From an uncultured Anaerolineaceae bacterium (GTDB lineage Bacteria > Chloroflexota > Anaerolineae > Aggregatilineales > Phototrophicaceae): 40,206 nucleotides of DNA. Both the position numbers and the translations under genes were made by a program. Positions 1,027 to 32,108 of the stretch are shown here, in pieces; the first letter of the stretch is position 1, and each line of letters starts with the position of its first letter. Location of the stretch: positions 1 to 40,206 of the forward strand of contig CAZQIJ010000001.1 in NCBI GenBank assembly GCA_964592955.1, in the 5' to 3' direction. The notes under the pieces were generated by a model, which was not told the origin of the DNA, made no database searches, and saw nothing but the letters and a program-made list of their open reading frames with translations.

Positions 1027-1077
1027 ATGCAGTAAATGAGCGTCTTTATGGCGTTTTCGAAAGGGTCAGGGATCGAT

Positions 1078-2292
1078 ATGGATGAACTGTTCACACCAGG
1101 GGAAAGTTTTGCACAGATCAAGGTTGTCGGTGTCGGCGGCGGCGGTGGTAATGCGGTCAACCGCATGATCAACGAAGGTTTGGGCGGGATCGAGTTCATC
1201 ACCGTCAATACCGACAATCAGGCGCTGCTGATGTCTAAGTCCCCGGTCCGTGTGCGCATTGGGGATAAACTGACGCGTGGCTTAGGCGCTGGCGGCAATC
1301 CTGAAATCGGGCGAAAGGCTGCCGAAGAAAGCGCAGATGACCTTTATGAGGTGCTGCGCGGGGCAGATATGGTCTTTATCGCCAGCGGGATGGGCGGTGG
1401 CACAGGCACCGGTGCTTCGCCTGTCATTGCCCAGATTGCGAAGGAACTGGGCGCGCTGACGATTGGCGTGGTAACACGTCCGTTCAGCTTTGAAGGTCCA
1501 CGACGCCAGCAGTCTGCCGAAAACGGCATCGAGGCGCTGAAGAGCCAGGTCGATACCCTGATCGTGATTCCCAACGACCGTTTGCTGCAGGTGGCGCACA
1601 AGAATGCAACACTCCAGCAGGCGTTTTCACTGGCAGATGATGTGCTGCGGCAGGGTATTCAGGGGATTTCGGAACTGATTACCGTCCCGGCGCTGATTAA
1701 CCTGGACTTCGCCGATGTGCGCACCATTATGTCTGAGGGGGGCGCAGCGCTGATGGCGGTCGGACGTTCCAGCGGCGATGACCGTGCCCGCCGTGCGGCA
1801 GAGATGGCCATCAGCAGCGGTCTGCTGGATGTGACCATCGATGGCGCGCGCGGTATTCTGTTCAATATCACAGGGGGTTCAGACCTGAGCCTGTTCGAGG
1901 TCAACGAAGCCGCAGCCATCATCAAAGACAGCGCACACCCGGATGTCAACCTGATCTTCGGTGCACAGATTGACGACAGCATGGGCGACGAGGTGCGGAT
2001 TACCGTGATTGCGACGGGTTTTGAGCAAAGCCGGGTTGCGCGCAAGATGGAGCAGCCCAGTTCACTGCGCCCCTCGCAGTCTGCCCAGTCGATGCAGCGC
2101 CAGTCTCAGCCGCAGCAGGTTCAGCGGCCCGCCGCGCCGCATCAATCTCAGCCCGTGCCAGCACAACCGCCGCAGCCAACGCAGCCGGTGCAGCAGCCCC
2201 CCCCACCCACGCCCACACAGCCCGATTCGCCGTCGCGCGTCTATGATGAAGATGACATCAATCTGCCGGCCTTCCTGCGCAAACGGCGTTAA
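1078..2292 (+). CDS. ftsZ: Cell division GTPase FtsZ
   Basis: '[18 protein letters not shown]' and the tubulin signature '[13 protein letters not shown]' are present. A long P/Q-rich linker leads to the conserved C-terminal peptide '[13 protein letters not shown]'. The ORF opens at ATG 1036. I prefer ATG 1078 because CAGGGA lies 7 nt upstream, the candidate -10 sits at 1021-1026, and about 13 residues before the IKV motif is usual. The start is uncertain. Confidence 0.95.
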
Positions 2293-9646: not shown

Positions 9647-9696
9647 CCTGTTGAAACAGGGTGCGCAGCGGCCAGGGGCGCGGCAACAGACAAAAG

Positions 9697-9726
9697 CACC
9701 GCTGTTCTCCGTAAAGAACAGCGGTG
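9697..9726 (-). terminator. Terminator downstream of the cyclase-kinase operon
   Basis: CACCGCTGTTCT (9697-9708) pairs with AGAACAGCGGTG (9715-9726), a perfect 12 bp stem. On the - strand it is followed by CTTTTGTCTGTT. Confidence 0.6.
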
Positions 9727-9759
9727 CAGGGTGCGCTTCATGTGGCGGGTCTGCGCTGG

Positions 9760-11289
9760 TCAACTGGTGACGCGCAGCGAATCCAGGATCAGTTGCAGAC
9801 TGCCAACGAACCTGTTGCCGCTTTCATCAGACGTATAGGTTTCCAGGACGACGAAGTAGGGCCCGCGCCGCATGTAAAAGACATCGAGCTGACCCGGCAG
9901 GAACTCGGCATGGTTTTCCATACGGTAACTGCGGCGGAGTGTGCCGTCTTCGGCAGTCGCCTCGTCGATGAGCTGCAGAGACTGGCGGGCATAGTAGCCT
10001 TCGTCATAACTCTGGATCTGTGCGGCGAAATCCGGTTCTGCCACAACCAGCGACAACGTTACAAACGCCTCATCGTCGTTCTGCCACATGTGGGCCTGGC
10101 GGTAGCTGTCTGATACATCTGCAAACTGCGCCCCCAACGGCATCCATTGTTCAGGCATCGAAATGCTGTAGCTCGTGTGATTGACCGTAGAGGCACGCGG
10201 GAAGGGGGTAGGAATGGCATCGACGCCGTTGGTCGTACTCACGAGAAACAGGGCACCTGCACCGCCAGCCAGGATCACCAGCAGCAGTACCAGCACCGCG
10301 ACCAGCGGCAGCGATCTGCGCTGGGGTTCGCCCGCGGGTTGTGTTCCAGTGCCCACCCCCGCAGCAGTTCCCGTGCCGGGTGCTGGAATTGCAGACGGGA
10401 TCGCAGGCATTTCGATGGCGGTTGCCATCGTGCTGTTCAGCGGCTGCGCGGGTTTGGGGCGTGGGGTACCCACCGGCTCCCTCAGCGCTACAGACAGGTC
10501 GTCGATCATTGCAGAAGCAGACGAATAGCGCTTATCCGGGTCTTTTGCTGTGGCTTTGGCAATGACATCTTCTACAGACTGGGGGACATCCGGGCGGAAC
10601 TCCGAGACCGGGGGCATCGGCTCGTTAATATGCTTGAGCAGGATGGCCATCGGGGTTTCGGCCTGGTACGGGGCACGCCCGGTAATCATCTCGAACATCA
10701 CGACACCCAGCGCATAGATGTCTGAACGTCCGTCGATAGGCATACCGTTCGCCTGTTCCGGAGACATATAGGCCGGTGTGCCCACAATCATGCTCCCGGT
10801 GAGGTTACTGCCCAGAACACGCGCAATGCCGAAATCGCTGAGGTAGGCATTGCCATTCTCATCCAGCATGATGTTGCCGGGTTTGAGGTCACGGTGGATG
10901 ATCCCCTGCCGGTGCGCGTAATCGAGCGCCTGGGCAATCTGGCGCAGGGGTTGTTCCAGTTCCGAAAGCGACATCGGGCCGCGCCGGATACGCTGATCCA
11001 GGCTGCCGCCGCCCAGGTAACGCATGGCGATGAACGGAACGTTATCGGTTTGCCCATAATCGTAAATGGGCAGAATGTGCGGATGCTCCAGATGCGAGAT
11101 AACGTCCACCTCGCGTTCGAACCGCTCATAGAAACCGGGATCGTGCAGCAGATGCTGCGGCAGCACTTTAACCGCCACAATCCGATTCATGGTGAGCTGC
11201 CGCGCGCGATACACGGAAGCCATACCGCCACGCCCGATTTCTTCCATAATTTCGAACTGACCCAGTACTTTGCCCTGTAGATTGGTCAT
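9760..11289 (-). CDS. Hanks-type Ser/Thr protein kinase, single-pass membrane, with an uncharacterised extracytoplasmic C-terminal domain
   Basis: 'GRGGMASVYRA..VAVKVL', 'HRDLKPGNIML', 'DFGIA' and 'GTPAYMSPEQ'. These are followed by a Pro-rich linker, the TM segment 'LPLVAVLVLLLVILAGGAGALFLV' and ~150 aa outside. Confidence 0.9.
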   Translation of the reverse strand: MTNLQGKVLGQFEIMEEIGRGGMASVYRARQLTMNRIVAVKVLPQHLLHDPGFYERFEREVDVISHLEHPHILPIYDYGQTDNVPFIAMRYLGGGSLDQRIRRGPMSLSELEQPLRQIAQALDYAHRQGIIHRDLKPGNIMLDENGNAYLSDFGIARVLGSNLTGSMIVGTPAYMSPEQANGMPIDGRSDIYALGVVMFEMITGRAPYQAETPMAILLKHINEPMPPVSEFRPDVPQSVEDVIAKATAKDPDKRYSSASAMIDDLSVALREPVGTPRPKPAQPLNSTMATAIEMPAIPSAIPAPGTGTAAGVGTGTQPAGEPQRRSLPLVAVLVLLLVILAGGAGALFLVSTTNGVDAIPTPFPRASTVNHTSYSISMPEQWMPLGAQFADVSDSYRQAHMWQNDDEAFVTLSLVVAEPDFAAQIQSYDEGYYARQSLQLIDEATAEDGTLRRSYRMENHAEFLPGQLDVFYMRRGPYFVVLETYTSDESGNRFVGSLQLILDSLRVTS

Positions 11290-11298
11290 GTCGTATCG

Positions 11299-13155
11299 TT
11301 AATCCTTGAGATCCTTCAGCAGATCAGCCAACTCTGGATCAATAAACAGATTGCCGGTGCTTGTCCCTTTACGGCGTTTGATAACACGATACCCGAATAC
11401 CAGATCGGGGTAGCCCTTGGTCTTTTCGAGTGTTACATGTTCAACCTCGAAATCGTCCTTAACATACTCATAGGTCGCCTGGCTGATGATGATGCTGCCG
11501 TAGGCGTTTTCCTGCAGCACTTTGCTGATGTCCATCGCCTCACCCAGCGCCGCGAACTCCTTACGGCTGCTGCTGCCCACATTACCCAGAACCGCCATGC
11601 CCGTATGAACGCCCACCCCATAATAGAGGCGCTGCTCTTCTGGCAGGGTTTCGTGCAGGGCATAAAGATCGTAGAGCATGCTGAGGGCCGCACGCACGGC
11701 ACGCACAGCATGGTCAGTCTGCGGGTTCAACTGCGTGTTGAAGAGGCCAGTTACCGCATCCCCCATATACTTATCGACAATGCCCTCATAGAGGTTGATG
11801 GCATCGCTGGCAACGCTAAGGTACTGGTTAATCACGCGCATCAGGGTTTCGGGTTCCAGTTTCTCGCTGAAGCTGGTAAACCCGCGCACATCCGCGAAAA
11901 TGGCGGTAATTTCGCGTTCCTGGCCGCCCACATTGATTTCAGAGACACTGCGAATATTCTTCACAAGCGCGGTAGGCAGGTAGCGCCCTACCTCTGCAAG
12001 CTGAGCTTCGCGCCGCTTGTTCTCCGTAAGATCGTCCAGCACCAGCGCCAGCCCCAGCCCGCGCCTGAAGGAATCGCGCAGCGGCGTGGCATTGATATTC
12101 CAGTAACGGAGGCCATCGGCAAATTCCGGCTGCACTTCTACAATGACCTGCCGCCCAGAGGACTGTACCTGATTCAGCGTGGTATAGAAATCCTCTTCCA
12201 GCGGCGGCATGAGATCTGTCAGCGGCATTCCCATCACATCGACCGTCACACCCAGGATCTTCTGGGCTGCGCTGTTGCAGGCCGTTACGTTGCCCTGGCT
12301 GTCTGTCGTAATTACGCCGCTCACAATGGACTCGAAGATGTTGTTCATCAGGTCGCGCAGTTCAGTGATCTGGGCAAGCTGATGGCGTGTTGACTCAAAG
12401 AGGCGCGCGTTATCGATGGCGACTGCGGCCTGGTTGGCGAAGGCGGTGAGCAGTTCCAGATCATGGGGCTGGAATAGGCCTGCCAGAATGCGGTTGTCGC
12501 AATAGACCACGCCTATCACTTCATTGCGCACCTTCAAAGGCACAGCCAGGATGCTGCGCAGGGCATAACCGACGATGCTGTGGCGCTGCTGGTAGCGCTC
12601 GTCCTGGCTGGCATTATCGGTCAGAACGGGTTGCCCCGTAGTCGCAACCTCGTTGACGATGCTGCGGCTCACGATAAATTCGCTGCGCTGTGTTCCGCTA
12701 TCTCCGGCGGTGGGGGAAATCGCAAGCTGTTCCTTGTCCATACCGCGCGCCACGCGGAACTCATCCAGCTCACCTGTCTGGCGGTTCTTAAGGACGATGT
12801 AGCCACGTTCTGCCCCGGTGAGCTGAATCACCGTATCGATAACCTGGTTCAGGACCTCGTTGGTATCCAGCGTAGAGGTAATCAGCGCGGCGGTTTCTGC
12901 CAGCGCCCGCAGTTGGCGCAGCTCAACCTGTGTGTGGACGATATGTTTGCTGATCTCTTCCAACCGCGCGCGAAGCGATTTCAGCCCCTCCAGAGAACCG
13001 GTAGGCAGGTTCATACCGCGGCGACGCAATAAATCCTGTTGGCTGCGCAGTAGTTCAGTAACATCATCGATGTGGCGCATAAGCTGCCGAATACGTTCCT
13101 GTGATGAAGGCGGTTCGTCAGGTGTGCGGATCTTGTTGGTCTCTTCAATCGACAT
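11299..13155 (-). CDS. Class III adenylate/guanylate cyclase with coiled-coil, GAF and PAS domains (metal-site-competent, transition-state residues degenerate)
   Basis: GAF ('LTGAERGYIVLKN..VPLKVRNEVIGVVYCDN'), PAS ('IFESIVSGVITTDSQGNVTACNSAAQKILG') and cyclase ('ITAIFADVRGFTSFSE', 'VDKYMGDAVTGLFN'). The late motif reads 'LGEAMDISKVLQE' instead of GDxVNxAxRxE. Confidence 0.9.
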   Translation of the reverse strand: MSIEETNKIRTPDEPPSSQERIRQLMRHIDDVTELLRSQQDLLRRRGMNLPTGSLEGLKSLRARLEEISKHIVHTQVELRQLRALAETAALITSTLDTNEVLNQVIDTVIQLTGAERGYIVLKNRQTGELDEFRVARGMDKEQLAISPTAGDSGTQRSEFIVSRSIVNEVATTGQPVLTDNASQDERYQQRHSIVGYALRSILAVPLKVRNEVIGVVYCDNRILAGLFQPHDLELLTAFANQAAVAIDNARLFESTRHQLAQITELRDLMNNIFESIVSGVITTDSQGNVTACNSAAQKILGVTVDVMGMPLTDLMPPLEEDFYTTLNQVQSSGRQVIVEVQPEFADGLRYWNINATPLRDSFRRGLGLALVLDDLTENKRREAQLAEVGRYLPTALVKNIRSVSEINVGGQEREITAIFADVRGFTSFSEKLEPETLMRVINQYLSVASDAINLYEGIVDKYMGDAVTGLFNTQLNPQTDHAVRAVRAALSMLYDLYALHETLPEEQRLYYGVGVHTGMAVLGNVGSSSRKEFAALGEAMDISKVLQENAYGSIIISQATYEYVKDDFEVEHVTLEKTKGYPDLVFGYRVIKRRKGTSTGNLFIDPELADLLKDLKD

Positions 13156-13158
13156 AGG

Positions 13159-14922
13159 TTAAAGCCTGAATATCTCGTATACGCGGGTCTTTTGCTGGCG
13201 TCCTTTAGCCTGAATCGGTTCCAGTTCCTGGTAGCGAAAGCTCAGCGGCTGGCCAGATGCTTCCAGATAGGCCAAGGTGTACTCGCTGATAATCATCTGA
13301 CCGGGTGTCGCATTTTCTTCCAGACGTTTGGACAGGTTGATTGTGTCGCCGATGGCGGTGAAATCGCGGCGATGGCTGCTGCCCACATTGCCCAGCGTCG
13401 CTACACCAGAGTTAATGCCGAGACGGTAATAGTGGGGGTCGGGGGCAAGTCCCAGTTCCGCATAAAGTTCGACAAAGGCATCGCGGATGAGCAGCGCCGC
13501 TTCCACCGCCTGCGCGGCGTGATCCTGCATAGGGTTAAGCTGTGAATTAAACAACCCCATGACATCGGTCCCCATGTATTTGTCGATCACACCCTTCACC
13601 TGATGAATGCATTCGGTCGCACGGGAGAGATAGACATTAACCATTTCCATGATCTGCGGTGGACGCAGCCCGGTGGGCATAGACGCGATCGAACGAACAT
13701 CGACGAACATGCAGGTCACTTCGCGGCGTTCACCACCAAGATCAAGACGGGCAATCGAATGGATGTTATCGACCATTTCCGGCGGCAGATAACGCTTCAT
13801 GATCGTAAGCATTTCTTCGCGCTCGCGCTGCTCTGTAACGTCGTCCAGCACAATGGCCGAGCCCTGAGGATTGCCGCCAGCGTCTTTCAGCGGGCTGAGC
13901 TTCATATTCACAGAGATATCGCGTTTGGCGACCGCCATCCGCCCTTCAAAGACCTGTTTCTCGTCTCCGCGCTGCACTTTGCCAAGCGCTTCTGCAAACT
14001 CATCCCCCAGATCGCTCAGCAGTTCCTTCAGCGGTTTACCCAGCACTGCGCCACGGTCATGGCGCGCCAGGATAGCGGCGGCGGCCCGGTTCAGGGTGAG
14101 GATCAGATTCTCGATATCGATGGTGATGACACCGCTTCCGATCGACTCAAATACGTTGTCGATCAGGTCTTTTACTTCGGTGATTTCTGCCAGCGATTTC
14201 TTGAGCGCAGCGTACAGGCGCGCGTTCTCCATGGCGACTGCGGCCTGGTTGGCGAAAGCGACGAGCAGTGTCTTCTCGCGCTGTTCAAAGACCCCGGTGC
14301 GCAGGCGGTTATCCACATACACTGCGCCGATAATCTCGCCTTTGTAGTTGAGCGGCACACACAGCACAGAGCGCAGGGTAAGCGCGGCGATGCTCACGTT
14401 GTTGGCCAGCCGCTCATCCTTATAGGCGTTGTCCGTTAGCATGGGGGTGCCTGTATCTAACACTTCGCGGACAATCGTCATGCTGATTTGTGGGGTGCCG
14501 CCATTGGTGGTGTGGCCGGCCAGTTCGTTTTCGCGCCGCACGGGGAACAGGATGTCTCCGGTTTGAAGTTCGCGCAGAATGATGTAACCCCGTTCTGCAC
14601 CCGTAAGGCTGATGATGACATCCATCGCATTGGTGAGGATGGTATTCATTTCCAGCGACGAGTTGATCATCGCGGCATTATCCGCTAATGACCGCAGTTG
14701 CCCCAGTTCGGTGGTCTCGCTGGTCAGGGAATGCTCCAGCATATTGAGTTCGTTGACAATGGTTGTAAGGACCTGCATCGTCATCGGCGGGAGCGTAAGC
14801 CCTCGCGTCTTCAGGATATCACGCTGACTGCGCAGAGATGTCGTTATTTCTTCCGCCAGGGATTTGAGCTTTTCGACTTCGCCCAGCATACCTGGATGTT
14901 GTGAGGAATTTTCATCAACCAT
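13159..14922 (-). CDS. Class III adenylate/guanylate cyclase with coiled-coil, GAF and PAS domains (paralog; Asn/Arg intact, metal motifs degenerate)
   Basis: It has the same architecture and aligns end to end with the downstream gene. Cyclase motifs are 'VTCMFVDVRSIASMPT', 'IDKYMGTDVMGLFN', 'IGDTINLSKRLEE' and 'KGRQQKTRVYEI'. It is 3 nt from the next gene. Confidence 0.9.
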   Translation of the reverse strand: MVDENSSQHPGMLGEVEKLKSLAEEITTSLRSQRDILKTRGLTLPPMTMQVLTTIVNELNMLEHSLTSETTELGQLRSLADNAAMINSSLEMNTILTNAMDVIISLTGAERGYIILRELQTGDILFPVRRENELAGHTTNGGTPQISMTIVREVLDTGTPMLTDNAYKDERLANNVSIAALTLRSVLCVPLNYKGEIIGAVYVDNRLRTGVFEQREKTLLVAFANQAAVAMENARLYAALKKSLAEITEVKDLIDNVFESIGSGVITIDIENLILTLNRAAAAILARHDRGAVLGKPLKELLSDLGDEFAEALGKVQRGDEKQVFEGRMAVAKRDISVNMKLSPLKDAGGNPQGSAIVLDDVTEQREREEMLTIMKRYLPPEMVDNIHSIARLDLGGERREVTCMFVDVRSIASMPTGLRPPQIMEMVNVYLSRATECIHQVKGVIDKYMGTDVMGLFNSQLNPMQDHAAQAVEAALLIRDAFVELYAELGLAPDPHYYRLGINSGVATLGNVGSSHRRDFTAIGDTINLSKRLEENATPGQMIISEYTLAYLEASGQPLSFRYQELEPIQAKGRQQKTRVYEIFRL

Positions 14923-15192: not shown

Positions 15193-15717
15193 ATGGCACA
15201 GCAGCTTATCGTCGCGATTTTCCCTTCGCGCACCGGGCTTACCAAAGCACTGAATTCTGTTGTCCGCATAGAGGGGTTGGACGTTCAGCGTGCCGCTATT
15301 GTTGCGAAAGCGGCAAGCGGCGAAACAGTCATCATCGATGACAAAATCAGTGCAGATGAAGGCGGCATTACCGGAGGAACACTGGGAGCCGCGATGACGG
15401 CGCTTGGCCTGGTGCAGTTGGGTGCGCTAACGCTCCCTGGTGTGGGGCCGATTATCGCGCTGGGTGCAGGCGTGCTCGTTGGCGGATTGGTAGGGAATGC
15501 CACCGGCAGATTTGCCGCCAATCTGCTGGAATCTGGCTTCAAAACGTTTCAGATCGAAGACCTTGAGACGAACTTGCAGGAAGGCAACCCGGCCCTGGTG
15601 CTTGAGGTTACAGGAGACAGCTCCGTGCTGGCACGGTTGAGGCAGGATCTGGCTGCGTTCGGGGCGCAGGTGGTGGAGCGCCCTGGTAAAACCGGGACGC
15701 TGACGCAGCATCCATGA
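15193..15717 (+). CDS. DUF1269-family membrane protein (glycine zipper)
   Basis: 'LIVAIFPSRTGLTKAL..AAIVAKAASGETVIIDD' followed by 'GGTLGAAMTALGLVQLGALTLPGVGPIIALGAGVLVGGLVG'. GGAGAA lies 8 nt upstream of the ATG. Confidence 0.75.
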   Translation: MAQQLIVAIFPSRTGLTKALNSVVRIEGLDVQRAAIVAKAASGETVIIDDKISADEGGITGGTLGAAMTALGLVQLGALTLPGVGPIIALGAGVLVGGLVGNATGRFAANLLESGFKTFQIEDLETNLQEGNPALVLEVTGDSSVLARLRQDLAAFGAQVVERPGKTGTLTQHP

Positions 15718-17224: not shown

Positions 17225-17905
17225 TTACTGCACCAGGCGCATCACAGACAGCACACGCCCTTGGATACTGCACTGTTTGGCCTGGACGTAAATCGGATCC
17301 ATGGTGGGGTGGGCAGGCTGCAGGCGAACCCGTTCCGCATCCTCAAAGTAGATATATTTGAGGGTTGTTTCGCTGCGTTCTTCTAACCACACCGCGACCA
17401 TTTCACCATTGCGGGCTGTGGCAGTTTTGCGCAGAATCACGATGTCGCCGTCCTGAATCATGGCGTCGATCATCGAGTCCCCCTTCACGCGCAGCGCATA
17501 AACCTCTGACGGATCAATACCGTTGAGCATTGCCGGCGGCACATCAAAGGCGTTTTCGTCGCTAAGCGCCTGCTGCAGATCTTCCGGGACGGAAACCGGA
17601 TGCCCCGCCACAATCATCCCGATCAGCGGCACCTGCAGGAAATCTCCGGCGCGCACGGGTGAGCTTGTCCCTTTGCCAGGCAGCGCCTTAACCAGTTTAA
17701 GCCCGCGCGACTTGGTGGCTGTGCGCTGCAAATAGCCCATGCGCACCAGCTTGTTCAGATTGTAGTTAACAACCGAGGTAGAATTGATCCCGGTCGCTTC
17801 CCCAATTTCACGGATGGTTGGTGGAAAGCCGTTGCTGGTAATGTAGCGATCCATAAACCGGAGGATGTTCTGCTGTCTTTCTGAGAGTTTTTCGAACTTT
17901 TTCAT
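17225..17905 (-). CDS. lexA: SOS repressor LexA (S24 autopeptidase)
   Basis: wHTH 'FPPTIREIGEATGINSTSVVNYNLNKLVRMGYL', cleavage-site region 'IVAGHPV', catalytic 'VKGDSMIDA' Ser and 'VILRK' Lys. Confidence 0.93.
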   Translation of the reverse strand: MKKFEKLSERQQNILRFMDRYITSNGFPPTIREIGEATGINSTSVVNYNLNKLVRMGYLQRTATKSRGLKLVKALPGKGTSSPVRAGDFLQVPLIGMIVAGHPVSVPEDLQQALSDENAFDVPPAMLNGIDPSEVYALRVKGDSMIDAMIQDGDIVILRKTATARNGEMVAVWLEERSETTLKYIYFEDAERVRLQPAHPTMDPIYVQAKQCSIQGRVLSVMRLVQ

Positions 17906-30470: not shown

Positions 30471-32108
30471 TCACACCGTTTCGTGCAGTATTCGTACATA
30501 CCGGTTGGGTTCCTGCCCATAACTCCGGGAGTCCAGCGACGCTTGGCGGGCGAGCTGGTGCTGTTTGCGGCGAACGTCCGCGTTCTGTGGGCCGAGATCC
30601 ACAAATGCTGCCCCAGCGCGGATTTTCACGATCGCAGCTTCAGCCTCCTGGAGGGCTTTCCCAAAAGGGTCGTTGGGGTTCACCTCCAGGTTGAAGAGAT
30701 CAATCAGGAAGTTTTCCATCTGCGAAACGGTGTTGGCCCGCAGCACATAGATGGGCATCCCCTTGCGCTCGGAATCCACGATGATTTTGGGGCGGCGGCG
30801 GTAGTAATTCTTCAGCGTGACGATGGCATCTGCCCGCCCGTAATCATCCACGATATCCAGCGGGACGTGCAGGCGGCGCGCGGCCTGCTGCAAGCGATTG
30901 CGCGCTACGCCATAGGCATAGACCTTCAGGTTCTGCATATTCGCCACATCAAGCAAACGCGGCGGCAGTTCTTCTACCACTGCCGGCGCGCCGCGCCGTG
31001 ATGTGCGCATACTCCCCGCGCCATCTTCGCGGTCCCGGTCGCGGTCCCGTTCGCGGCGCGAGGTGGGACGCCCGTCCTGCGTGCGTTCCATCATCATGGA
31101 GCGCATTTCGGGCTGCACACTTTCGCTGTGAATTTCGCCAACCTCATTACGGGAACGCAGTTCCGCCGTCATCGGGCGGCCACGCAGCAGGCCATCAACC
31201 GACACCGCGACATCCTCATGGACGATCATACGGTCGCGGGACTGAATCTCAATCAGCACATCAAAGGTAGGAGGAGCGCGGCGCTCCAGCACCGTTTTCT
31301 GCGTGCCGCGCCTGCGGGCTTCTTCGTCTGACAACGTTACAGACTCTATGCCACCCACAAGATCCGAAAGCGTCGGGTTCAGCATCAGGTTATCCAGCGC
31401 GGTACCGTGCGCGGTGCCCACAAGCTGCACACCGCGTTCTGCAATGGTGCGCGCCGCCATAGCTTCCAGCTCGCGCCCGATTTCGTCAATGACGATGACT
31501 TCCGGGTTATGGTTCTCCACGGCCTCGATCATCACCTCGTGCTGAAGTTCGGGCCGGGCCACCTGCATGCGGCGGGCGCGCCCAACCGCGGGGTGCGGCA
31601 CATCGCCATCCCCACCGATTTCGTTGGAGGTATCGACAATGACCACACGTTTGGCTTCTGCCAGCACGCGCGCCGCTTCGCGCAGCAGGGTCGTCTTGCC
31701 GACGCCGGGCGGGCCCAGCAGCAGCACGTTCTGGCCAGATTCAACGAGATCCTGGACGATGTCAATTGTGCCATACACCGCGCGCCCCACCCGGCAAGTT
31801 AAACCCACAACCGTTCCCAGACGGTTACGAATCGCAGAGATGCGGTGCAGTGTTCGCTCCATACCTGCGCGGTTGTCTGCGTCGAACGTGCCGATAGCAT
31901 CTACGATGGCGTCGATATCTTCGCGGGAGACTTCCTGATCGCTCAGCACAACTTCGCCGTCAACGAACCGTGCTGTGGGTATACGTCCGAGGTCGAGAAC
32001 GATTTCGAGCAGGTTTTCTGTGTTGCCCAGCCGGTCCAGCGATTCGTTAAGGCGGCGGGGCAGCACACGTTTTAGTTCGTCGATGTTATCCGTTATACGT
32101 CGTTCCAT
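30471..32108 (-). CDS. AAA ATPase with C-terminal R3H nucleic-acid-binding domain (Ycf45 / SpoIIIAA-like)
   Basis: Walker A '[15 protein letters not shown]', Walker B 'VIVIDEIG' and the R3H motif '[29 protein letters not shown]'. Confidence 0.85.

Follow-up and report, generated by a model that had tools for sequence, protein, structure and literature searches.

Two adjacent GAF-PAS cyclase genes of Chloroflexota carry complementary catalytic half-sites and probably encode one heterodimeric class III adenylyl cyclase

Can two neighbouring genes, neither of which encodes a complete catalytic site, together make one enzyme? The question is raised by a stretch of 40,206 nucleotides (nt) from an uncultured Anaerolineaceae bacterium (contig CAZQIJ010000001.1), called the window here at its full length, in which two open reading frames (ORFs) follow each other on the minus strand. 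The upstream gene, at 13159-14922 (-), encodes a protein of 587 amino acids (aa) and the downstream gene, at 11299-13155 (-), one of 618 aa; each protein has a helical hairpin, a GAF domain, a PAS domain and a class III cyclase domain, and the 618 aa protein ends in a conserved C-terminal tail. Class III active sites form at a dimer interface, with two Asp coming from one chain and Lys, Asp/Thr, Asn and Arg from the other (PMC8815786, PMC9552081). The original prediction, made by reading this DNA, was that the two proteins had degenerated in complementary ways, so that only a heterodimer would have a competent site. Our analysis leads to the same proposal, and we put the probability at roughly 0.8 that the pair is a class III adenylyl cyclase (subclass IIIb-like) that has two sensor arms and works only as a heterodimer, the 587 aa protein acting as the candidate C2-like subunit and the 618 aa protein as the candidate C1-like subunit.

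The two proteins are 42% identical over 557 aa (BLASTP, E = 9e-142), and only 3 nt (CCT, 13156-13158 (-)) separate the TAA that ends the 587 gene from the ATG that starts the 618 gene, which agrees with the earlier description of paralogous tandem genes that align along their length. Canonical catalytic positions were fixed by HMMER alignment to Cya2 (2W01, and its E-to-K variant 6FHT), CyaC (1WC1) and CyaB (3R5G). A second alignment, made with MAFFT, combined the two window domains with C1 and C2 of human soluble adenylyl cyclase (sAC), canine VC1 and rat IIC2, whose sequences were verified against PDB entries 4CLF, 1CJK/8SL3 and 1AZS, and it agrees with the HMMER placement of the motifs.

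In the 618 aa protein the metal/phosphate half-site (11758-11892 (-)) is intact. It holds the first metal Asp (Asp1) at D422 (codon 11890-11892), the GFT phosphate loop beginning at G425 (codons from 11883 downward (-)), the Lys at K462 (11770-11772) and the second metal Asp (Asp2) at D466 (11758-11760), and the same residues are found in sAC C1 (Asp, GFT, K95, D99) and in VC1 (Asp, GFT, Lys, Asp). Its transition-state helix (11518-11553 (-)) is degenerate, with A535 at the Thr/Asp position, D542 at the Asn position and V546 at the Arg position; sAC C1 reads Leu, Asp and Leu at these positions and VC1 reads Asp, Thr and His. The 587 aa protein has its base-recognition and transition-state helix intact (T522, N529 and R533; 13324-13359 (-)), matching T405, N412 and R416 of sAC C2 and Asp, Asn and Arg of IIC2, and it keeps the Lys at K448, as do sAC C2 (K334) and IIC2. 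Its metal site (13564-13701 (-)) is eroded, with S411-I-A in place of GFT and T452 at Asp2. At Asp1, the loop and Asp2, sAC C2 has Asn, a deletion and Cys, and IIC2 has Ser, DFK and Ser. All the residues that the original prediction listed as kept or replaced in the 618 aa protein, and as kept in the 587 aa protein, were found at the canonical positions, and in the profile and structure-anchored alignments the 618 transition-state positions are occupied by neither Asn nor Arg. The erosion of the 587 metal site was also found, but it is less complete than had been described, as D408 is still present at Asp1.

Neither protein therefore holds the full six-residue canonical set (two Asp, Lys, Asp/Thr, Asn and Arg), which is complete only across both. 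Judged position by position in these alignments, the 618 aa protein resembles C1 and the 587 aa protein resembles C2. In searches of the PDB, the stretch of AC9 and sAC that best matched the 618 domain was the C1 part and the stretch that best matched the 587 domain was the C2 part; the 587 domain also matches the beta1 chain of soluble guanylyl cyclase (sGC).

Database searches showed that both orthologous groups are large and come from Chloroflexota, under names such as Anaerolineae, Aggregatilineales and Phototrophicales. Orthologues are 57-70% identical to the 618 query and 52-63% identical to the 587 query, above the 42% between the paralogues. We counted residues in 120 aligned representatives per group, each standing for one 90%-identity cluster. 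In the 618 group Asp1 and Asp2 are both Asp in 120/120, the loop has Gly in 116, Phe in 120 and Thr in 119, and the Lys is kept in 119/120. The Thr position of this group is variable (Ser 50, Ala 47, Thr 12, Gly 11), Asn is found at its position in only 11/120, the rest having Thr, Asp, Glu, Gln, Ser and others, and Arg is found in 0/120, replaced by Ile, Val, Phe, Leu, Tyr or Ala. The 587 group has Lys, Asn and Arg in 120/120 each, with Thr (89) or Ser (31) at the Thr position. Its Asp1 is Asp in 89, Glu in 22, Asn in 7 and Ser in 2, its Asp2 is kept in 0/120 (Thr 49, Asn 49, Gln 13, His 7, Ser 2), and the phosphate loop is lost, with Pro at the Gly position in 83/120. The half-site lost in one group is the half-site strictly preserved in the other. 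With its conservation throughout 120 + 120 orthologue representatives, this complementary pattern goes far beyond chance, and the same substitutions that were seen in the window are kept in orthologous pairs of related genomes.

If the two proteins depend on each other, their genes might be expected to stay together. Scanning a single genome for each species yielded 79 loci, paired and single-copy together. In the window and in 14 genome loci, which are all the 618-type loci left uncut by a contig end, the gene directly upstream in the same orientation is of the 587 type; one additional 618-type locus loses its second gene to the end of the contig. Six further metagenome contigs, reached through individual proteins, all carry the same pair with the same residue pattern, even though four of the six were picked since the partner was missing from the match lists. 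For 44 of the top 120 proteins of each group, the longest contig was equally long in both groups. The order of 587-type then 618-type gene on one strand was found in 21/21 complete loci (the window, 14 genome loci and 6 metagenome contigs), and no unlinked or single member of the pair was seen among these 21, which bears out the adjacency that the original prediction depended on. The two cyclase genes are the only genes common to all paired loci.

Most junctions in the relatives are -1 or -4 overlaps (ATGA, TGATG or TAATG), and such stop/start overlap is an arrangement typical of translationally coupled subunits of a complex. In the window, the junction TAA-CCT-ATG leaves both ORFs in one frame, which suggested a read-through C1-C2 fusion. 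This idea was rejected, since 18/20 of the other loci have the two ORFs in different frames or overlapping by 1 or 4 nt, and where the ORFs of relatives overlap in different frames no read-through fusion is possible.

Where did such a pair come from? At 45 loci of other Anaerolineae lineages, including Anaerolineales, Anaerolinea thermophila, Promineifilum and Ardenticatenaceae, there is a single homologue, 39-47% identical, in which the set D-GFT-K-D-T/S-N-R is complete, and within 6 kb of these single-copy loci no second cyclase gene was found. In a neighbour-joining tree the full-set, 618-type and 587-type sequences form three clades from one node, and the 618 and 587 subtrees mirror each other, which fits one tandem duplication followed by co-inheritance. 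We defined ancestral positions as cyclase-domain columns at least 90% conserved in the single-copy full-set group. Those kept by the 618 group only include D422, G425, E431, D466 and A467, and those kept by the 587 group only include D539, N542, R546 and E549, where the Asn and Arg columns are positions 542 and 546 of the 618 protein. Read from these columns, the losses are complementary and start from a complete ancestor, the single-copy full-set gene is likely the ancestral homodimer, and the C1/C2-like split is one that arose independently, from a full-set bacterial ancestor that survives in sister lineages.

We propose that a homodimeric GAF-PAS-cyclase gene would have been duplicated in tandem, with complementary loss of catalytic residues afterwards. 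In a head-to-tail dimer of the cyclase domains, the 618 subunit would contribute D422, D466 and the GFT phosphate loop, and the 587 subunit would contribute the adenine-selecting Lys448 and Thr522 and the transition-state residues Asn529 and Arg533, so that the combined half-sites would make one competent ATP-to-cyclic AMP site. The symmetry-related second site, made of the metal side of the 587 subunit and the Asn/Arg side of the 618 subunit, would be catalytically dead and might serve as a regulatory pocket. A 618 homodimer would be without Asn and Arg in both of its sites and a 587 homodimer without Asp2 and the phosphate loop in both, leaving the 618·587 heterodimer as the combination with one complete site and one doubly defective site. 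Tight spacing in the window and stop/start overlaps in most relatives would favour equimolar synthesis, and a conserved GAF and PAS domain in each subunit would bring two inputs onto one catalytic centre.

From residue conservation, gene linkage and the precedent of the Rv1625c mutants we infer physical heterodimerisation and inactivity of the single subunits; ATP as the substrate and any role for the second pocket are likewise inferred. The original prediction expected the 618 aa protein to be inactive alone; the 587 aa protein should be crippled by itself too, because it is without the second metal Asp and the GFT loop, a defect like that of the inactive D300A mutant of Rv1625c. The Lys and Thr predict ATP as the substrate, because the Lys occupies the site at which an E-to-K change sets the adenylyl cyclase variant of Cya2 apart from Cya2 itself, and the Thr corresponds to T405 in sAC. 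With K448 and T522, the 587 aa protein carries the combination of Lys with Thr/Ser that marks subclass IIIb.

Some observations count against an obligate heterodimer. The acidic residue at Asp1 of the 587 group (Asp or Glu in 111/120), together with a Glu or Asp directly after the Asp2 position (+1) in 103/120, could leave a 587 homodimer weakly active and still able to bind some metal. Rv1900c is reportedly a class III cyclase that is active in spite of non-canonical residues. The mirror-tree correlation between the two groups (r = 0.97) was set aside as evidence of interaction, as it shows co-inheritance and not necessarily interaction.

The explanation that survives best beside the heterodimer, though we find it unlikely, takes these acidic residues further: the 587 aa protein would be the real enzyme, working as a homodimer with D408 and the acidic residue at +1 (D453 in the window, Glu in relatives) as metal ligands, and the 618 aa protein would be a non-catalytic regulatory partner or decoy. 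The frequencies of acidic residues just given fit this, as does the retention of Lys, Thr, Asn and Arg by the 587 group. With that said, Asp2 is lost in 120/120, Asp1 is not strict, the phosphate-loop Gly has become Pro in 83/120, and the analogous D300A mutant of Rv1625c is inactive (PMC4821796). A decoy role would also make no sense of a 618 group in which Asp1, Asp2 and the loop Phe are kept in 120/120, the Gly in 116 and the Thr in 119, as these residues can act only beside the Asn and Arg of another chain.

Less probable again is that the two proteins are independent homodimers whose cyclase activity is non-canonical or very low, or which carry out some other nucleotidyl-transfer chemistry, and that their adjacency reflects tandem duplication only. 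Both proteins do have full sensor sets, and Rv1900c and Rv0386 are said to retain some activity despite substituted canonical residues. Independent drift, however, would not be expected to yield halves that complement each other exactly and are strictly conserved in 120 + 120 sequences, nor losses that fall exactly on the ancestral conserved residues of opposite half-sites, and it leaves the invariant gene order and the stop/start overlaps across an order-level clade unexplained. That both proteins are pseudoenzymes, signalling scaffolds that no longer make cyclic nucleotide, seems very improbable to us: a complete catalytic set is indeed found in neither chain, but purifying selection on each half-site is very strong (six catalytic positions together at 120/120) and the two halves jointly rebuild the complete canonical site of the single-copy relatives.

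Returning to the heterodimer, its second site appears to have gained residues as well as lost them. In the 587 group, besides the frequent Glu or Asp right after the lost Asp2 (D453 in the window, 13564-13566 (-)), an Arg is found at the position of R500 in 93% of sequences, where the ancestor and the 618 group have Gly, and a His at the position of H497 in 88%, where the ancestor has Leu. H497 and R500 are encoded at 13423-13434 (-), R500 aligns with the Arg of 'MRVGIHSG' in VC1, and D453, H497 and R500 form a cluster about the dead metal site in the 587 aa protein. On the other side, the 618 group keeps Lys462 (119/120), and its residue at the Arg position is hydrophobic in every case. The new conserved residues of the 587 group suggest a remodelled pocket rather than plain decay. 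By analogy, this second site could be a remodelled regulatory pocket, as in the mammalian transmembrane adenylyl cyclases (tmAC), where the pocket binds forskolin, and in sAC, where it binds bicarbonate. These residues could instead reflect some remaining capacity to bind metal, the chief reservation about a 587 aa protein that is inactive alone. A more ambitious reading joins the two ideas: C1/C2 asymmetry would have been independently re-invented as two translationally coupled subunits, and the dead site would have been rebuilt into a selected ligand pocket, formed by the Glu at +1, Arg500 and His497 of the 587 subunit and by Lys462 and the hydrophobic residue at the Arg position of the 618 subunit. 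We consider this joint reading possible but doubtful.

The architecture of the two proteins was examined with Pfam and with AlphaFold2 models. Pfam gives PF00211 (Guanylate_cyc) in each protein at 51.7 bits, against a gathering cut-off of 21.9, along with a GAF and a PAS domain in each. In the 587 aa subunit the GAF domain spans aa 92-231 (14230-14649 (-)), the PAS domain aa 255-367 (13822-14160 (-)) and the cyclase homology domain aa 400-578 (13189-13725 (-)), which is modelled with a predicted local distance difference test (pLDDT) score of about 90. In the 618 aa subunit the GAF domain spans aa 97-247 (12415-12867 (-)), the PAS domain aa 270-381 (12013-12348 (-)) and the cyclase homology domain, likewise seen in the model, aa 414-581 (11413-11916 (-)). 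Both cyclase domains were thus present as first described, but the boundaries given for them then, about 11380-11900 and 13162-13710, shift to about 11413-11916 and 13189-13725.

The AlphaFold2 predictions were of the two monomers only, and it is architecture, not pairing, that was read from them. With mean pLDDT values of 75 and 79, the two models share one layout of a two-helix hairpin, a GAF domain, a long connecting helix, a PAS domain, a short helix and the cyclase domain, and the model of the 618 aa protein has an additional C-terminal helix. In Foldseek comparisons with CyaC, Cya2 and CyaB, the target-normalised template modelling score was 0.73-0.80 for the 618 cyclase model and 0.77-0.85 for the 587 cyclase model, and the superpositions of both domains had a root-mean-square deviation of 2.5-3.7 Å over about 190-200 residues. 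By these models, both cyclase domains have the class III fold.

Outside the cyclase domains, the paralogues keep 43 and 41 of 52 ancestral conserved GAF positions, and 17 and 21 of 28 conserved PAS positions. Since retention is similar in both, neither sensor arm seems to be decaying, and this comparable conservation fits the idea of two inputs. The N-terminal two-helix hairpins, of about 80 aa with the motif L..Q...L..RG..LP (14659-14889 (-) in the 587 gene and 12880-13104 (-) in the 618 gene), matched no Pfam family in either paralogue and may be a dimerisation or partner-selection module. The C-terminal tail (aa 582-618, 11302-11412 (-)), with the motif LF.DPELA.LL.DL and a predicted helix at 607-616, is conserved in the 618 group and has no counterpart in the 587 group; it could be a docking or autoregulatory helix. 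NCBIfam had no specific family for the 587 aa or the 618 aa protein.

How does the proposed enzyme compare with known asymmetric cyclases? In the mammalian tmAC (VC1·IIC2; 1AZS, 1CJK), the metal Asp residues and GFT come from one part and Lys, Asn and Arg from the other, as proposed for our pair, and there is one active site and one degenerate pocket, as there would be here; even the substitutions fall at the same positions, with Thr/His at Asn/Arg in C1 and Ser/Ser at Asp1/Asp2 in C2. Unlike our pair, tmAC has C1 and C2 fused in one polypeptide with 12 transmembrane segments, belongs to subclass IIIa with Asp as the second specificity residue, and is regulated by G proteins; the window pair consists of two separate soluble GAF-PAS proteins with Thr at that position. 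The nearest catalytic subclass, with the Lys and Thr pair, is found in sAC (ADCY10; 4CLF) and class IIIb CyaC (1WC1). As in the 618 aa protein, sAC C1 has Asn changed to Asp and Arg to a hydrophobic residue while keeping the Lys four residues before Asp2 (K95, equivalent to K462), and sAC C2 resembles the 587 group in its degenerate metal site, although it has lost both Asp (Asp1 to Asn and Asp2 to Cys). In sequence and in fold, the window cyclase domains match CyaC and Cya2 best. However, sAC is a single chain with C1 and C2 in tandem, and CyaC, Cya2 and CyaB are homodimers with two complete sites.

In being made as two polypeptides the pair instead matches sGC. The alpha1 and beta1 chains of sGC are separately encoded paralogues, each with a sensor, a PAS domain, a helical linker and a cyclase domain, and they form an obligate heterodimer with one active site and one pseudo-site, as proposed for the window pair; sGC chains are also among the whole-model Foldseek matches of the window proteins. 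They differ in being eukaryotic, sensitive to nitric oxide through haem H-NOX sensors and specific for GTP (Glu/Cys), whereas the window pair has GAF and PAS sensors, Lys/Thr, and adjacent genes that often overlap stop-to-start in relatives. The chytrid NeoR/RGC1 and NeoR/RGC2 pairs are separately encoded, genome-clustered rhodopsin-guanylyl cyclase paralogues that are active only as heterodimers (PMC8815786), and they combine two different sensors, as our pair would. They are nonetheless eukaryotic and GTP-specific, and because RGC1 and RGC2 keep all catalytic residues, complementary loss does not explain why a heterodimer is required (PMC8815786).

Bacterial proof of principle comes from Rv1625c, of which the D300A and R376A mutants are each inactive alone but complement each other (PMC4821796). 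These are the same two defects, of a metal Asp and of the transition-state Arg, that separate the window proteins; the Rv1625c split was engineered in a natural homodimer with two full sites, while the split described here is natural, ancient and fixed across its clade. GcyB and GcyC of Rhodospirillum centenum were considered as a precedent and rejected, as they are described as non-catalytic subunits or hypothetical proteins and not as a degenerate cyclase pair. The closest bacterial relatives are the single-copy GAF-PAS-cyclases of the other Anaerolineae (loci L015-L061) and the cyanobacterial GAF/PAS cyclases, which are like the pair in domain layout and subclass and are 40-47% identical to it; they differ from it in having the full set in one protein and no adjacent paralogue, and are presumed to be homodimers.

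Bacterial class III adenylyl cyclases have been described as homodimerising monomers with two equivalent sites, and catalytic asymmetry as a eukaryotic trait (PMC4821796, PMC9552081, PMC8815786). Our full-text literature search, with many subscription-journal reviews beyond its reach, turned up no account of a class III heterodimer that occurs naturally in bacteria and is encoded by two genes. The principle is already known from tmAC, sAC and sGC and is in the textbooks; what appears to be new, judging from the genes, is its occurrence in a bacterium, in two adjacent GAF-PAS genes, by an independent split.

A third gene follows the pair in the window. It encodes a Ser/Thr protein kinase of 509 aa (9760-11289 (-); Pfam Pkinase, 8.9e-55) with one predicted transmembrane segment and a C-terminal extracytoplasmic region, and its ORF starts 9 nt past the 618 stop. 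An intrinsic-terminator-like hairpin with a 14-bp stem followed by a T-run (9696-9727 (-)) lies directly 3′ of the kinase gene, and no minus-strand terminator was found between the three genes. With this tight packing and the position of the hairpin, the 587, 618 and kinase genes, in that order, look like one operon. In L080 and L081, the two closest relatives examined, the kinase gene likewise comes third. The kinase was rejected as an obligate third component, as it is missing from the 18 more distant paired loci. Many single-copy Anaerolineales cyclases (L023, L025, L031-L035, L039, L044, L047, L048, L059 and L061) have a different, large Ser/Thr kinase gene, encoding about 715-780 aa where it is complete, some 3.5 kb upstream and on the other strand, which may reflect conserved synteny or a functional kinase-cyclase link.

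On the other side of the pair, a divergent small gene (15193-15717 (+)) encodes a Gly/Ala-rich, membrane-like protein of 174 aa without a Pfam match; a homologue of 179-180 aa occupies the same position in L080 and L081, with a faint DUF1269 match in L080. Further away are a LexA repressor gene (17225-17905 (-); LexA_DNA_bind and Peptidase_S24) and an FtsZ gene (1036-2292 (+); Tubulin/FtsZ GTPase and FtsZ_C). With FtsZ, peptidases and an ABC transporter elsewhere in the window, the context is that of an ordinary chromosome and not of a mobile element. A 545 aa protein (30471-32108 (-)) has an unusual combination of an AAA/SpoIIIAA-like ATPase region, a phosphotyrosine-phosphatase-like domain (PF25516) and R3H. 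No gene for an effector that binds cyclic nucleotides was found among the window ORFs scanned with Pfam.

If the proposal is correct, these Chloroflexota would have a soluble bacterial enzyme, naturally encoded by two genes, in which one site is active and the other degenerate. The finding also calls for caution in annotation, as a single gene of the pair may be labelled 'adenylate cyclase' or 'inactive' and either label would be misleading. The pair would offer a tractable model for the evolution of asymmetric cyclases by duplication and complementary loss, given that single-gene relatives with the full set survive in sister lineages, and a simple system in which to study the part played in regulation by a degenerate site and by two sensor arms that are not identical. 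Should the joint reading of a rebuilt second site also hold, the enzyme would integrate three inputs, from two GAF/PAS sensor sets and an allosteric pseudo-site, and these bacteria would have preserved the 'duplicated but not yet fused' stage that has been postulated for the eukaryotic pseudo-heterodimeric cyclases.

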